IMG/VR virus record: IMGVR_UViG_3300014208_000001
Location: 165,318-229,317 of that record
DNA length: 64,000 nt
Source: a virus
Taxonomy: Duplodnaviria > Heunggongvirae > Uroviricota > Caudoviricetes
Reading direction: 5' to 3' (one strand)
A program made the translations under genes and the position numbers. The number at the start of each line of letters is the position of its first letter. Position 1 is the first letter of the stretch. Shown one piece after another: positions 26,341-32,768 of the stretch. The notes beneath the pieces were generated by a model that was not told where the DNA came from, did not search any database, and was given only the letters and a program-made list of their open reading frames with translations.

Positions 26341-26374
26341 ATGAACCACACCACCGATTGGTGGTGTGGTTCAT
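26341..26374 (-). terminator. intrinsic terminator: perfect 15-bp stem, 4-nt loop, followed on the minus strand by TTTTATAA
   Basis: atgaaccacaccacc-gatt-ggtggtgtggttcat. Confidence 0.6.
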
Positions 26375-26520
26375 CCCTGCTCTCAGGGTGTCACGTGCCT
26401 CATTTCGAACTGAGGGTTTCGGCCTACGTCTACCTGTGCCTATTGCGTCATGTGCTCCTGTCGGTAAAGCATTCGCTAAACGTCACCCCACACAGGCCAG
26501 ATGGGGTCGGAGACATCCAG
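26375..26520 (-). ncRNA. GC-rich (~55%) structured 3' element / candidate sRNA between operon stop and terminator
   Basis: Sharp GC jump against AT-rich flanks, several local stems (ccctg...caggg; cctca-8nt-tgagg) and no coding ORF. Confidence 0.25.
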
Positions 26521-26880
26521 TCAAGTCTCTTTATGGGACTTGACAATTTCTTCAATTGCCAACACAATCCTAGCACGTGTCATTGGATCTGACTTCAAAA
26601 CATTGACTTGTTTCTCAATCTCACCGCCGAACCGCTGAACCAATGTTTTTGCAAGGTTCGAGCGAACTGCGGCAGCGATATGGTTACGGAATTCATCATC
26701 CGCAACCGCAGACCCGATCGCATTCTCAAGCAATTCACGAAAAGCACTGTTGTGCTTCTCAATTGCTGCAGTTAAAAGTTTGTCGATTGGGCTATTATAC
26801 CCCTTCAACTTATCAGTAACTGACTCCCTGATTCCGTCATGGATAGCACGACTAAGAAGCTCATCAGCGTTGATTTCCAT
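26521..26880 (-). CDS. hypothetical all-helical protein, last gene of the PspA/SPFH operon
   Basis: A 119-aa ORF. GC-richer than the genome background. Confidence 0.4.
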   Translation of the reverse strand: MEINADELLSRAIHDGIRESVTDKLKGYNSPIDKLLTAAIEKHNSAFRELLENAIGSAVADDEFRNHIAAAVRSNLAKTLVQRFGGEIEKQVNVLKSDPMTRARIVLAIEEIVKSHKET

Positions 26881-26910
26881 AATACCTCCTACTTTGGTAG
26901 TGAATATGTG

Positions 26911-27645
26911 TTACGACTTCAAACTTGCGATGATACTATCGATATCGTCTGTATCATCATCCAAATCATCATTTTCTCGAGCCAAATCGGCTGTGACTTG
27001 GCTCCGTGCTTCTTGCATCCGCAATTTTTCATCTGCGATTGCTTCAGCAGTTGCAGCATTCCGCATCGCATTACTCAATACGGCGTTTGTGTCGTTCGAC
27101 CCAAGTAATTCATTTATCCGTTGTTGAGCAGCACCAGTTTTCAATTTTATATCAATACTCTTTGCGCGCTGCTCAAGATCGCTTATCCTCTCTTCAGAGT
27201 CTTTGATTTGCTTCAAAGTACGATCATAGTTATCTTTTTGAGTTTGTAATAGCGATTTATTAGATTCCAAATCCTTCCTAACTCTGGCGAGTCTAGAAGC
27301 ATGTTCTCTAGTCTTGTTTGATGTTTCTTCACCTTTAGCGATTGCGTCACGAATACGCGCTTCAAGTTTGATAACGTCTTTTTCGCCTTCTTTTACCTGC
27401 TTATCAAGATTCTGCTCATAAGCATTAATTTCGATAAGTGCTTGACTTGATTTACTGAGTTCTTCTCTGGCATCATCGACAGCTTGTTGCAATAATGCAA
27501 CTGGGTCATGGTTTTCAACAATTCTCGATGCCTTCCCGACTTGTGCTCGGCCAGCATTGAAAAACCGTTGAAATGCGGTTTTATTAATAACCGCTAACAT
27601 AACTCCACCGACAAGCAGAATCAACATAATCACTGACGTTGACAT
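26911..27645 (-). CDS. PspA/IM30 (Vipp1/YjfJ) family protein with N-terminal TM anchor
   Basis: FQRFFNAGRAQVGKASRIVENHDPVALLQQAVDDAREELSKS aligns with the PspA N-terminus [37 protein letters not shown]. Coiled-coil throughout, preceded by a hydrophobic MSTSVIMLILLVGGVMLAVI. Confidence 0.6.
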   Translation of the reverse strand: MSTSVIMLILLVGGVMLAVINKTAFQRFFNAGRAQVGKASRIVENHDPVALLQQAVDDAREELSKSSQALIEINAYEQNLDKQVKEGEKDVIKLEARIRDAIAKGEETSNKTREHASRLARVRKDLESNKSLLQTQKDNYDRTLKQIKDSEERISDLEQRAKSIDIKLKTGAAQQRINELLGSNDTNAVLSNAMRNAATAEAIADEKLRMQEARSQVTADLARENDDLDDDTDDIDSIIASLKS

Positions 27646-31012: not shown

Positions 31013-31063
31013 CAGAAAACCCTTGAAATTGTTTAAATGTCAGGTCAACGAAATCTTGGTTAT

Positions 31064-31219
31064 TTAAAACCCTACTTTTTTCACTATACGTTTTTCACCA
31101 GTTGCTTTGTGCGTCCAAAATTCTGTAAGATGAAAACCGTTCATCCCATCAAGTGTACCCACATGAGTCATTGATTTAGACCAACCAATGCGTAACCACC
31201 ATTTGATGCGATCTAGCAT
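31064..31219 (-). CDS. small Trp-rich ORF between the two SPFH genes (unannotated)
   Basis: A hand-translated 51-aa ORF, MLDRIKWWLRIGWSKSMTHVGTLDGMNGFHLTEFWTHKATGEKRIVKKVGF, with an AAGGTG RBS. Confidence 0.3.
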   Translation of the reverse strand: MLDRIKWWLRIGWSKSMTHVGTLDGMNGFHLTEFWTHKATGEKRIVKKVGF

Positions 31220-31229
31220 TGCTTTCACC

Positions 31230-32768
31230 TTACTTAGTTGGCTTTTTATCGAAATTCTTAAAAATATCCATTAAAGGACTATCAGCAGTATTGCTCATGA
31301 TTTGTTTATAGGCAGGGGCTAACTTTTGCAACAGCACGAATTGTGCGTATGCTTGGCCATCGCCACCCAATGCTTCAATGGTCTTCTTCCAACCAGCGGC
31401 TTCCGCCATGTTCTCGAATTCAATAACACCAGCATCAGCTTTCTTTCTGGCTAACATCGCAGCAGCTTGATCTTTTGATGCTTCAAGATCACGTTCAGCC
31501 ACAACTAGCAATTCATTAGCTTTCGTTATCGCTACTTGTTGTTCTTGCTGTGCTTTTGTGACATTTTGTGCAACAGATTGTTCAGCGGCAATTAATTCTT
31601 GACGACGTTTAATCATCGCTTTTTCAACAGCTAATTTGGCTTCAGCACCTTGCTGCAAAACCTGCTCTTTGTACTGAGCGAGTTGTTGTCTTGCTATCTC
31701 CCTGTCTCGAACAGGCCCTGCGATAGCTTGTGGTGGGTTAATTCTAGTGATCAGTGCTTGTACAATTTCGATACCAGATTTATCACATGCTTCCTGCATG
31801 GCGACAGCAAAATCTTTTTGGAATGCTGTTCTGGTTTCACCACCAATAAAATCTCGACCAACATTATTTGATCCACGTAATCTGCAAAAACTACGTGCAT
31901 TTGGCATTACAATTTTACGGACGATTTCAGCACTAACTGAACTTTCATCTGCGTCATCAGCCAATTCATTATAAACAACTAATACTTCAGCCGCTTTTTC
32001 AGGTTTAACCCTGAATTCGACGATACCATCTAATGATACCCAAAACCCATCTTTACTAGGGAAACCCATGTCTCCATCTTCAGACAAATTAAATCGTTGA
32101 CTACGACAATCTATTAGATTCACTCTTGACATATATGGATTAAGATAATTCGTACCAGCATCTAATGTTTTTTCCTGTACGCCACGATATCCCGGTTGCA
32201 CAAGTAAAACATTGGGGTTTTCCGGCATCGGGCCAGCTAAATTAGTGACAACACCACGATATCCAGCTGGAATTGTGATAGGATCAAATAATTCAATGAT
32301 TTCAACATAATCAGGTGTTTTTCGAGTGGCTTCTTGGCCTTTTATAACACCATTTATTGGATATCTGCCGGGACGCAAAACCTCGTCGACGATACCTTTC
32401 TGATCTTCTTTAACAGCTAAGAAATGTGCATACGGCAAATTATTACCATACAATCTTACTCTAACCCCCATTTTACCAGCTGGAATTTCTATCATTGGGT
32501 GAACTGCCCAACTCCAATTCCATGGATTGTAAAAATATCTGCCTTCAGTAAGGACTTTACGTTGAATACCCTTGTACTTTTCGTCTGGTGCTATAATATC
32601 CCCATCTTCAAGATCTAACCCGGTTTTCTTAACCAAAACCGCAATATGACCTTGCGGAACATCGATCCTGAATGTTGCATATGTTTCATAACACATAATA
32701 AGCAACAGCAAACACATTATTGCGATTACACCAATCGCACCAAGCGGATTACTACTACGACGTCGCAT
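31230..32768 (-). CDS. SPFH/Band-7 (flotillin-like) membrane protein, paralog 2
   Basis: Same architecture as 29414..31012: TM, three PGxYxxNP repeats (KGIQRKVLTEGRYFYNP, KGIVDEVLRPGRYPING, RGVQEKTLDAGTNYLNP), a band-7 core and a long A/E/Q coiled-coil. Confidence 0.6.
   Translation of the reverse strand: MRRRSSNPLGAIGVIAIMCLLLLIMCYETYATFRIDVPQGHIAVLVKKTGLDLEDGDIIAPDEKYKGIQRKVLTEGRYFYNPWNWSWAVHPMIEIPAGKMGVRVRLYGNNLPYAHFLAVKEDQKGIVDEVLRPGRYPINGVIKGQEATRKTPDYVEIIELFDPITIPAGYRGVVTNLAGPMPENPNVLLVQPGYRGVQEKTLDAGTNYLNPYMSRVNLIDCRSQRFNLSEDGDMGFPSKDGFWVSLDGIVEFRVKPEKAAEVLVVYNELADDADESSVSAEIVRKIVMPNARSFCRLRGSNNVGRDFIGGETRTAFQKDFAVAMQEACDKSGIEIVQALITRINPPQAIAGPVRDREIARQQLAQYKEQVLQQGAEAKLAVEKAMIKRRQELIAAEQSVAQNVTKAQQEQQVAITKANELLVVAERDLEASKDQAAAMLARKKADAGVIEFENMAEAAGWKKTIEALGGDGQAYAQFVLLQKLAPAYKQIMSNTADSPLMDIFKNFDKKPTK

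Follow-up and report, generated by a model that had tools for sequence, protein, structure and literature searches.

A transmembrane-anchored PspA module and a planctomycete-type SPFH gene pair in one predicted operon of a T4-like jumbo phage

Bacteria scaffold their membranes mainly with two systems, PspA/Vipp1 and the SPFH proteins, and cooperation between them has been recognized only recently, in the ydjFGHI genes of Bacillus subtilis. Why would a bacteriophage carry both? The question is raised by a locus in the 64-kb stretch of IMG/VR record IMGVR_UViG_3300014208_000001 analyzed here (the whole of which is called the window), where eight consecutive minus-strand open reading frames (ORFs) spanning positions 26521-32768 encode, in order of transcription, an SPFH protein (SPFH_A), a small Trp-rich product, a second SPFH protein (SPFH_B), a repeat protein, a DUF350 protein, a protein designated unk185, a PspA/IM30 protein with its own transmembrane (TM) anchor and a protein designated unk119 (Table 1). 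The intergenic gaps, from -1 to 51 nt, amount to operon-like packing, and the eight ORFs are accordingly treated below as a predicted operon. We find that this operon has two evolutionary layers, a host-derived SPFH pair and a PspA module that is not host-like, and we consider what the two might do together.

The window is phage DNA, with genes for a T4 gp20-type portal, a large terminase, baseplate wedge proteins, a helicase and ribonucleotide reductase. Copies of the locus that are identical or 99.7-99.8% identical occur in four assemblies, among them contigs of 355,685 bp (ENA) and 355,863 bp (JGI); the virus is therefore a jumbo phage, and since the gene order agrees across four independent assemblies, an assembly chimera is ruled out. 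It is distant from phages on record: megablast of the region and the flanking helicase found no match among GenBank phages, and the nearest portals are only ~31% identical to that of the window. The virus is a T4-like jumbo phage of ~356 kb, and its host is a member of the Planctomycetota.

An earlier description of the locus, made from the letters and their ORFs (the sequence-only reading), had named the two SPFH proteins, the DUF350 protein and the TM-anchored PspA, together with the repeat protein, a TGATG coupling, a 15-bp terminator and a T4-like setting. These calls are borne out. The eight ORFs and the other elements are found where they had been placed (ORF list, TRF and hydropathy), and each domain match exceeds its curated Pfam cut-off (23.6 bits for Band_7, PF01145; 26 for DUF350, PF03994; and 33.9 for PspA_IM30), so that the hidden Markov models uphold the PspA and Band_7 assignments on which that reading depended.

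Two evolutionary layers in one predicted operon

In the PspA protein, a TM helix at the N terminus precedes the PspA body, and the C-terminal tail is acidic. By hydropathy, residues 1-26 form a hydrophobic TM segment that stands in place of the amphipathic helix alpha0, and this TM-anchored form is a variant architecture of the PspA/IM30 family. An exhaustive HMMER search, needed because a word-indexed protein search with PspA returned only the query itself, recovered 188 representative PspA-family clusters (at 50% identity), nearly all of ~250 aa and aligned from their first residues. The N-terminal TM segment is present in 124 of the 139 full-length representatives, and among the 150 matches listed none exceeds 34% identity. 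The family profile matches solved Vipp1 and PspA structures (6zvr, 8qbw and 7o3w; 5.5e-15 to 2.4e-14, chain residues 22-217) in a comparison made at the sequence level only, and it matches Escherichia coli YjfJ with an hhalign probability of 94.8%. Among GenBank phages, tblastn with PspA and one of its relatives found no match, a single-protein scan of IMG/VR with PspA returned nothing, and none of 20 cluster representatives checked came from an NCBI genome.

Genomic contexts were inspected for ten of the cluster representatives and for 21 further loci retrieved with a hand-made degenerate DNA pattern. Every one is a metagenomic contig with phage-like gene content, and a single order recurs among them: a gene for a repeat-type secreted protein, sometimes a DUF350 gene, an unk185-type gene and a gene for an anchored PspA. 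The order is present in full or in part in the loci designated L008, L012, L013, L015, L017, L019 and L022 and, with the neighbors of PspA recovered by family profiles, in L110, L111, L117, L122, L130-L132, L135, L150, L155, L157 and L159. Contigs carrying the module include some of considerable length (285,943 bp for L017 and 345,913 bp for L117), and they encode ribosomal protein S21, IF3, peptide deformylase, DnaJ, PcfJ, a tRNA synthetase and many ORFans, a gene set typical of huge phages. L159 is an IMG/VR viral contig on which a head-tail adaptor gene lies ~3 kb from the module. By these comparisons, repeat protein-(DUF350)-unk185-PspA is a widespread and conserved module, seen among the contexts inspected only on phage-like metagenomic contigs. 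Neither the repeat protein nor unk185, which the sequence-only reading had listed as an unknown, is incidental: no other products accompany the anchored PspA as constantly.

The repeat protein has a signal peptide (cleaved at about AG/K), KSSFSGGS repeats, a P/S/T/K-rich linker, a conserved C-proximal coiled-coil domain and a C-terminal TM anchor. Counting the tandem array and degenerate units together, ~11-12 KSSFSGGS units are present at the protein level. On the 355,685-bp contig (L001 8309-9193) the protein has 294 aa and two units fewer, the genomes being otherwise 99.7% identical, and repeat number is therefore polymorphic in the population. Relatives are detected by blastp in L015 (1.5e-14) and L013 (6e-11), and in at least 15 loci the rep-family profile picks out a member next to the unk185 and PspA genes. 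In alignment, the family shares a plan of a signal peptide ending in AG followed by K/R, a Ser/Gly-rich low-complexity stretch and a C-terminal TM segment, and the motif block YWLL...W.YHH...MD.AR...LE...ARDP.Y.P..PDLMY.D.YV.AAYNP occurs in all members except the two shortest (L012 and L017). No lipobox cysteine is found in the aligned members, and a Pfam search with the repeat protein and three relatives gave no match at E<=1.

The DUF350 gene follows immediately, its ATG overlapping the TGA stop codon of the repeat-protein gene (TGATG). Its Pfam match covers one half of the 133-position model, which is consistent with a half-size form of two TM segments, and homologous genes occupy the same position in L008, L015, L022 and L130 (2.4e-13 to the L008 relative). 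The next gene product, unk185, matches its L015 relative at 5e-36; Pfam searches with unk185 and five relatives gave no match at E<=1 apart from a weak EF-hand hint in the relatives. A low-confidence structure model of it consists entirely of beta structure, with an SH3/KOW-like barrel at the N terminus. A motif check found a canonical EF-hand loop (pattern D-x-[DN]-x-[DNS]-G-x-[IVLM]-x-x-x-E; for example, DLDGNGTIEQDE) at one position in eight of 19 distinct members of the family. Relatives with the loop include those at L008 901-1587, L012 11572-12279, L013 9282-9944 and L017 10001-10705 and those in L022, L117 and L150.

Some module loci have further neighbors. A clade formed by L013, L019, L110 and L117 shows synteny of genes for a thiamine pyrophosphate-dependent enzyme, IF3, an Fe-S biogenesis protein, DnaJ, S21 and peptide deformylase around the module. 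Ion channel genes (Pfam Ion_trans/Ion_trans_2) adjoin it in L012 (12283-12987) and L017 (11565-12314), recalling the K-channel partner of bacterial YjfJ-type operons. On L144, a 2.4-kb metagenomic contig of 0.58 G+C content (GC), a gene for an anchored PspA (1470-2252) is immediately preceded by the C-terminal half of an SPFH_B-like gene (612-1304; 53% identity to residues 282-512). The 5' part of that contig has no SPFH_B match, and the SPFH gene may be truncated or the contig imperfect; L144 is a second, independent SPFH-PspA adjacency.

The SPFH pair has a different history. SPFH_A and SPFH_B each have an N-terminal TM segment by hydropathy, and the identity between them is only 26%. Strong homologues of SPFH_A, at 57-74% identity, number in the hundreds, and those that are named belong to the Planctomycetota. 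On a 7.56-Mb planctomycete contig a tandem pair is found in the same order, its first gene 74% identical to SPFH_A and its second 70% identical to SPFH_B, flanked by lepA and by genes with PSCyt/PSD1 domains, which we take to be typical of planctomycetes; on this contig, as in a metagenome-assembled genome (MAG) of the Pirellulaceae, the second SPFH gene directly follows the SPFH_A homologue. A scan of one genome per species gave 252 matches, of which 80 were kept, and these are almost all from Planctomycetota (Pirellulaceae, Planctomycetaceae, Gemmataceae, Thermoguttaceae and Kuenenia). A B-like gene comes after the A-like gene in 78 of 85 loci, and the seven exceptions end 93-1125 bp past the A-like gene, leaving no room for a B-like gene. 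The pair is thus an old, phylum-wide tandem of two paralogues, nearly universal among Planctomycetota, with the phage holding orthologues of both in the same order. Identities of 74% and 70%, a shared order and a tandem found across the Planctomycetota together indicate that the phage pair is derived from a host.

Other phages hold the pair as well. It is present on L024, a 430-kb IMG/VR phage contig where a Gp23 capsid gene and a sulfatase gene adjoin it, and on L107, a 49.6-kb phage contig that also encodes T4 gp13 and NAD-synthesis genes. The spacer between the A and B genes is short in the host and other phage pairs (13 bp in L107, by gene calls). Distance analyses make the window, L107, L024 and the bacterial locus L004 mutual nearest neighbors, which fits transfer between one planctomycete lineage and its T4-like phages. 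On L024 (8168-9121 and 14327-15496), a gene for a Gp23-type major capsid protein and the sulfatase gene flank the SPFH pair, and the SPFH genes there have a GC of 0.53-0.55 versus 0.41 in the flanks. Genes for sulfatases are characteristic of planctomycetes.

The SPFH family is essentially restricted to the Planctomycetota and their phages. An AlphaFold 2 monomer model of SPFH_A (predicted local distance difference test, pLDDT, of 63) comprises a TM helix, a beta-rich region, the SPFH core and a helix of ~120 residues, and Foldseek matches it to cage-forming SPFH proteins, namely PHB1/2, erlin1/2, HflK/C and stomatin at 1e-7 to 1e-6, and also to flotillin and the vault shoulder. When the sequences of solved structures were searched, the family had no significant match, the best being prohibitin 1 at E = 0.0012 with the family profile only, and it is thus a divergent branch. 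Among GenBank phages, tblastn found no match to SPFH_A and only distant matches to SPFH_B, in a 642-kb uncultured phage and a Vibrio phage; a single-protein scan of IMG/VR with SPFH_A returned nothing. The GenBank phage collection accordingly contains no member of the PspA family and nothing closely related to the SPFH pair; this locus is not one already characterized there.

The eight-gene module has a GC of 0.408 versus 0.334 for the rest of the window, and third-position GC is 0.28-0.48 in the module versus 0.19-0.26 in most phage core genes. The sequence-only reading had noticed the raised GC and took it as a hint of acquisition from a host. For the SPFH pair, with its close planctomycete orthologues, this view holds; it does not extend to the PspA half, as searches for host homologues of the repeat protein, DUF350, unk185 and PspA found none. 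Host SPFH loci (the 7.56-Mb contig and the Pirellulaceae MAG) have no PspA or DUF350 neighbors. A host origin of the whole island was rejected where the PspA half is concerned.

A possible membrane-maintenance role and its rivals

Membrane topology was predicted by the positive-inside rule, from the numbers of Lys plus Arg residues before the TM segment and in the 15 residues after it. The PspA family averages 0.08 before and 3.14 after, which predicts an N-out orientation and a cytoplasmic body. The SPFH_A family shows the opposite bias, 2.83 before versus 1.57 after, with N-in, C-out favored in 89%, and these counts predict a periplasmic body as in HflK/C; SPFH_B is ambiguous. Two lines of earlier work bear on how such proteins might be used. 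PspA of B. subtilis reaches the membrane only with the help of the SPFH protein YdjI and two membrane proteins encoded in the same operon (PMC8581546), and bacterial PspA proteins more generally are linked to Band-7 proteins, DUF350, lipoproteins, uncharacterized soluble proteins and K channels (PMC11237479).

We propose that the phage operon serves membrane maintenance and that its products stabilize or repair the inner membrane of the host while a long infection runs its course; our confidence in this proposal is evenly balanced. The functions assigned to its parts are drawn from the known activities of PspA/Vipp1 and SPFH proteins (PMC8281802; 10.1101/2020.09.23.309765; PMC7619361; PMC8581546). 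The ectodomain of the repeat protein and an SPFH cage would lie on the periplasmic side, a PspA polymer and unk185 on the cytoplasmic side, and DUF350 within the membrane. By analogy with HflK/C, prohibitin 1/2 and erlin 1/2, SPFH_A and SPFH_B would assemble together as a ring or cage with its anchor in the inner membrane. The anchored PspA would polymerize on the cytoplasmic face and seal or stiffen the stressed inner membrane, as PspA and Vipp1 do, and its action would be independent of induction and recruitment by a host system of the PspF/PspBC type. Pfam and NCBIfam searches found no PspB or PspC sensor domain and no PspF regulator domain in any ORF of the operon. unk185 could act as an adaptor or sensor for PspA, responsive to Ca2+ in the relatives with an EF-hand, and DUF350 and the repeat protein could be its membrane and periplasmic partners, in the way that YdjG and YdjH serve B. 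subtilis PspA. The SPFH cage would organize the same membrane from the other side or restrain a host membrane protease. The net effect would be that the membrane barrier and the proton-motive force are kept until lysis.

Several observations weigh against this proposal. The SPFH pair and the PspA module are apart in most genomes: no PspA module is found within 10 kb of the SPFH pair in L024, in L107 or in the host loci, and most module loci are without an SPFH gene. The predicted placement of the SPFH and PspA bodies on opposite faces leaves a direct contact of the kind seen between B. subtilis YdjI and PspA unsupported. The adjacency of the two blocks could be an accident of an accessory-gene region. 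The EF-hand loop is absent from the window copy of unk185 and from the L015 copy, and confidence in both structure models is low (pLDDT 59 and 63). Moreover, for every contig other than the window and L159, a viral nature is read from gene content, because PHROG scans of the neighbors at the other module loci were mostly empty.

Of the rival explanations, the one that survives best follows from these same observations, namely, that two unrelated blocks of cargo have come to lie side by side, an SPFH pair that acts alone (e.g. as an HflK/C-like regulator of FtsH) and a PspA module that acts alone. The two blocks are indeed separate in almost all other genomes, their protein bodies are predicted on opposite faces of the membrane, and HflK/C cages, which enclose FtsH, are among the Foldseek matches (PDB 7wi3 and 9cz2). 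On the other side, the blocks are only 28 nt apart with no strong terminator between them and share a single strong terminator at the end, L144 provides a second case in which an SPFH_B-like fragment lies directly upstream of an anchored PspA, and PspA-SPFH operons recur in bacteria (PMC8581546, PMC11237479). We regard this explanation as unlikely, though slightly less so than the other rivals.

A second possibility is superinfection exclusion or anti-phage immunity, whereby the repeat protein, DUF350, a periplasm-facing SPFH cage and the membrane-bound PspA would alter the envelope of the infected cell and so keep a second phage from injecting its DNA, in the manner of T4 Imm and Sp. Consistent with such a role, hydropathy assigns five or six of the eight products to the membrane or envelope, the operon is located among accessory genes, and the repeat protein is exposed to the periplasm and varies in repeat number between near-identical genomes, a pattern seen in conflict genes. 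However, PspA proteins are known for membrane sealing and not for blocking entry, and no similarity to known exclusion or defense proteins was found: PADLOC left seven ORFs without a match and gave for PspA only weak coiled-coil matches to JetC and LmuB (E = 3e-4 or worse), which we regard as noise, and identification of the operon as a known defense system was rejected accordingly. Further, the triad of repeat protein, unk185 and PspA is kept across genomes with GC from 0.42 to 0.63, and such conservation in very different genomes argues for a general housekeeping role in infection and not for an arms race. Exclusion is, on balance, an improbable function for the operon.

The operon might also set the timing of lysis, PspA and its partners offsetting the loss of membrane potential caused by a holin or other phage membrane proteins and so acting as an antiholin-like buffer that delays lysis until the virions are fully assembled. 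PspA is known to respond to and counteract dissipation of the proton-motive force (PMC7619361). A Peptidase_M23 gene, possibly an endolysin by its PHROG matches, lies 1 kb upstream on the same strand, and in L013 an M23 peptidase gene is found ~10 kb from the module. But no holin was identified beside the operon, the M23 domain of the window is fused to a CoaC-like flavoprotein, and lysis timing is in any case a special case of membrane maintenance and not a true alternative to it. We consider it distinctly improbable as the specific purpose of the operon.

Finally, an ESCRT-III-type polymer and an SPFH cage might shape or pinch the host membrane into vesicles or compartments for replication or assembly; the planctomycete host phylum already has extensive membrane invaginations, but we know of no such compartments for T4-like phages. 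This is the most doubtful of the rivals, for although membranes are tubulated, fused and budded by PspA and Vipp1 in vitro (10.1101/2020.09.23.309765; PMC8281802), although a TM anchor that is permanent fits a structural role better than a stress-induced one, and although the SPFH pair is planctomycete-wide, Pfam and NCBIfam searches found no Vps4-like ATPase or other remodeling factor in the operon, and nothing ties the module, whose contigs differ widely in GC, to planctomycete hosts specifically.

Returning to membrane maintenance, a more ambitious form of the proposal would hold that large phages encode an ESCRT-III-based membrane repair machine, consisting of an anchored PspA polymer, a cytoplasmic adaptor that is often an EF-hand Ca2+ sensor, and membrane and periplasmic partners, to which planctomycete phages have added a captured SPFH cage. 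The eukaryotic parallel to an EF-hand adaptor is ALG-2-triggered ESCRT-III wound repair. We offer this extended version tentatively, as less likely to be right than wrong by a wide measure.

Should the membrane-maintenance proposal be right, the anchored proteins would constitute a new type of PspA, comprising 188 clusters, with a built-in anchor and three fixed partners, one often bearing an EF-hand, and would offer a compact system in which to study the recruitment and regulation of an ESCRT-III-type polymer in bacteria without a Vps4-type ATPase. It would imply that large phages invest in the integrity of the host membrane, with bearing on control of the latent period, on resistance to abortive infection that depolarizes the membrane and on what the "phage shock" response originally signified. 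The SPFH pair, captured repeatedly by phages, would serve as a host marker for uncultured phages and as a route into the unusual membrane biology of the Planctomycetota. If the repair-machine version were also true, it would define a new class of virus-encoded membrane-homeostasis system and would explain how host cells stay energized through long jumbo-phage infections or under membrane-targeting abortive infection.

Small ORFs, the 3' end and neighboring genes

Two ORFs of the operon appear to be lineage-specific on the homology searches made. The Trp-rich ORF is called as a gene on the 355,685-bp contig, and it has no Pfam, PHROG or NCBIfam match and no phmmer homologue in any fetched locus. 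unk119, the last ORF, is called on all of the near-identical contigs; its Pfam matches are sub-threshold only, and phmmer found no homologue in any other module locus fetched.

Table 1. Features of the predicted operon and its 3' end (positions in the 64-kb window)
Feature	Positions	Strand	Size	Description
SPFH_A	31230-32768	-	512 aa	First gene of the pair; Pfam Band_7, 92.5 bits, E 4e-26
Trp-rich ORF	31064-31219	-	51 aa	Putative gene; 5 Trp; listed as 54 aa from a GTG start
SPFH_B	29414-31012	-	532 aa	Second, divergent paralogue; Pfam Band_7, 73.2 bits, E 4e-20
Repeat protein ("rep" family)	28453-29385	-	310 aa	Hydropathy, blastp, family profile
24-nt tandem repeat array encoding KSSFSGGS	29062-29264		8.5 copies	TRF; 93% identity
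DUF350 protein	28223-28453	-	76 aa	2 TM; Pfam DUF350, 43.6 bits, E 3.9e-11
unk185	27656-28213	-	185 aa	Soluble, beta-rich, no TM; constant partner of anchored PspA
PspA/IM30 (ESCRT-III superfamily)	26911-27645	-	244 aa	Pfam PspA_IM30 (PF04012), 50.2 bits, E 3.3e-13, residues 25-231
unk119	26521-26880	-	119 aa	Putative gene; last ORF of the unit
GC-rich 3' untranslated stretch	26377-26520	-	144 nt	0.56 GC; last stop codon to terminator
Intrinsic terminator	26335-26374	-		Perfect 15-bp stem, 4-nt loop, T-run

The GC-rich stretch that follows unk119, set in a genome of 0.33 GC, is present only in the near-identical contigs. An Rfam search of the region gave no match at E<=1 for the stretch, and folding it together with the terminator gives a z-score of -3.5; a structured 3' untranslated region or a remnant of transferred DNA could account for it. 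The terminator itself (26374-26341: ATGAACCACACCACC-AATC-GGTGGTGTGGTTCAT-TTTT) is the strongest of the hairpin type in the window; on the minus strand, just one other perfect hairpin of >=10 bp precedes a T-run.

Upstream of the operon, co-oriented genes begin at a distance of only 70 nt. Two overlapping ORFs directly upstream (32839-33300 and 33266-33751) are weak paralogues of each other, 29% identical over 51 N-terminal residues (E = 2e-8), with no known domain. Beyond them on the same strand, at 33738-34775 and 34772-35473, are a gene for an unusual 345-aa fusion of a CoaC-type flavoprotein (PF02441) to Peptidase_M23, the M23 part of which has endolysins as its PHROG matches, and, preceding it, a separate gene of the DFP/CoaB type. 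The large terminase ORF (15149-19516; 1455 aa) and the ribonucleotide reductase ORF (35870-39256; 1128 aa) are much above the usual length, and endonuclease/LAGLIDADG matches within them suggest inteins. About 5 kb downstream of the operon, a 158-aa gene at 20858-21334 carries a SocA_Panacea domain of the antitoxin type.

Comparison with known systems

A bacterial operon close in composition is pspA-ydjGHI of B. subtilis, which likewise unites PspA, an SPFH protein and small membrane proteins, and whose YdjH has a low-complexity/coiled-coil segment (PMC11237479). The phage operon differs in that its PspA has a TM anchor of its own, its SPFH paralogues, two in number, are tentatively predicted to face the periplasm, and it is phage-borne; in addition, Pfam detected neither the TPM domain of YdjH nor the zinc-ribbon/NTF2 protein YdjG.

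The sequence-only reading had pointed to a YjfJ/YjfL likeness, and the YjfJ-type operons of Proteobacteria, such as E. coli yjfIJKLMC, do combine a PspA-family gene with a DUF350 gene (YjfL-type), a secreted protein or lipoprotein and an uncharacterized soluble protein (PMC11237479). The linkage of PspA to DUF350 stands, and the ion channel genes beside the module in L012 and L017 add a further resemblance, but the other defining partners of YjfJ operons were looked for and not found. No ORF of the phage operon, unk119 and unk185 included, has a Pfam match to CesT/Tir (YjfI, DUF2170), ATP-grasp and polyamine genes are lacking, and DUF2491, DUF4178 and DUF1190 are not detectable here, although a more remote kinship is possible. 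Assignment of unk185 to YjfK/DUF2491 (hhalign probability 0.7%) and of the repeat protein to YjfM/DUF1190 (0.4%) was rejected, neither value being significant in these comparisons with single-sequence targets. DUF350 has two TM segments in the phage versus four or eight in bacterial operons, the phage PspA has an N-terminal TM segment, and the repeat protein is without the lipobox cysteine. By the tests available, the phage operon would not be counted as a member of the YjfJ-type or Ydj-type operons.

For the SPFH pair, the counterparts are HflK/HflC, prohibitin 1/2 and erlin 1/2, with which it shares the form of two divergent tandem paralogues, each with a single N-terminal TM segment, an SPFH domain and a long helix; for SPFH_A, a body outside the cytoplasm, as in HflK/C, is tentatively predicted. 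The pair differs from all of them in an extra beta-rich region of ~130 residues before the Pfam-matched SPFH domain. Stomatin-NfeD operons provide no match, since no ORF of the operon has a Pfam match to the NfeD partner. Among phages, the Jug jumbo phages of Bacteroides have a pspA-like gene, mentioned in passing, that is transcribed within an operon, but its neighbor is terD and not a gene for a repeat protein, unk185 or DUF350, a comparison made by description only (PMC12880540). Phage-encoded PspA and TM-anchored PspA both go unmentioned in a 2025 review of bacterial ESCRT-III-like systems (PMC7619361), and a search of the literature for phage-encoded PspA or SPFH modules yielded nothing else relevant; the anchored phage PspA and its partners are thus absent from the literature searched, as the PspA family is from GenBank phage records. 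The sequence-only reading had been unable to place the combination in any described phage function. In bacteria, the pairings of PspA with SPFH proteins and of PspA with DUF350 have already been described (PMC8581546, PMC11237479), and what is new at this locus is their phage form.

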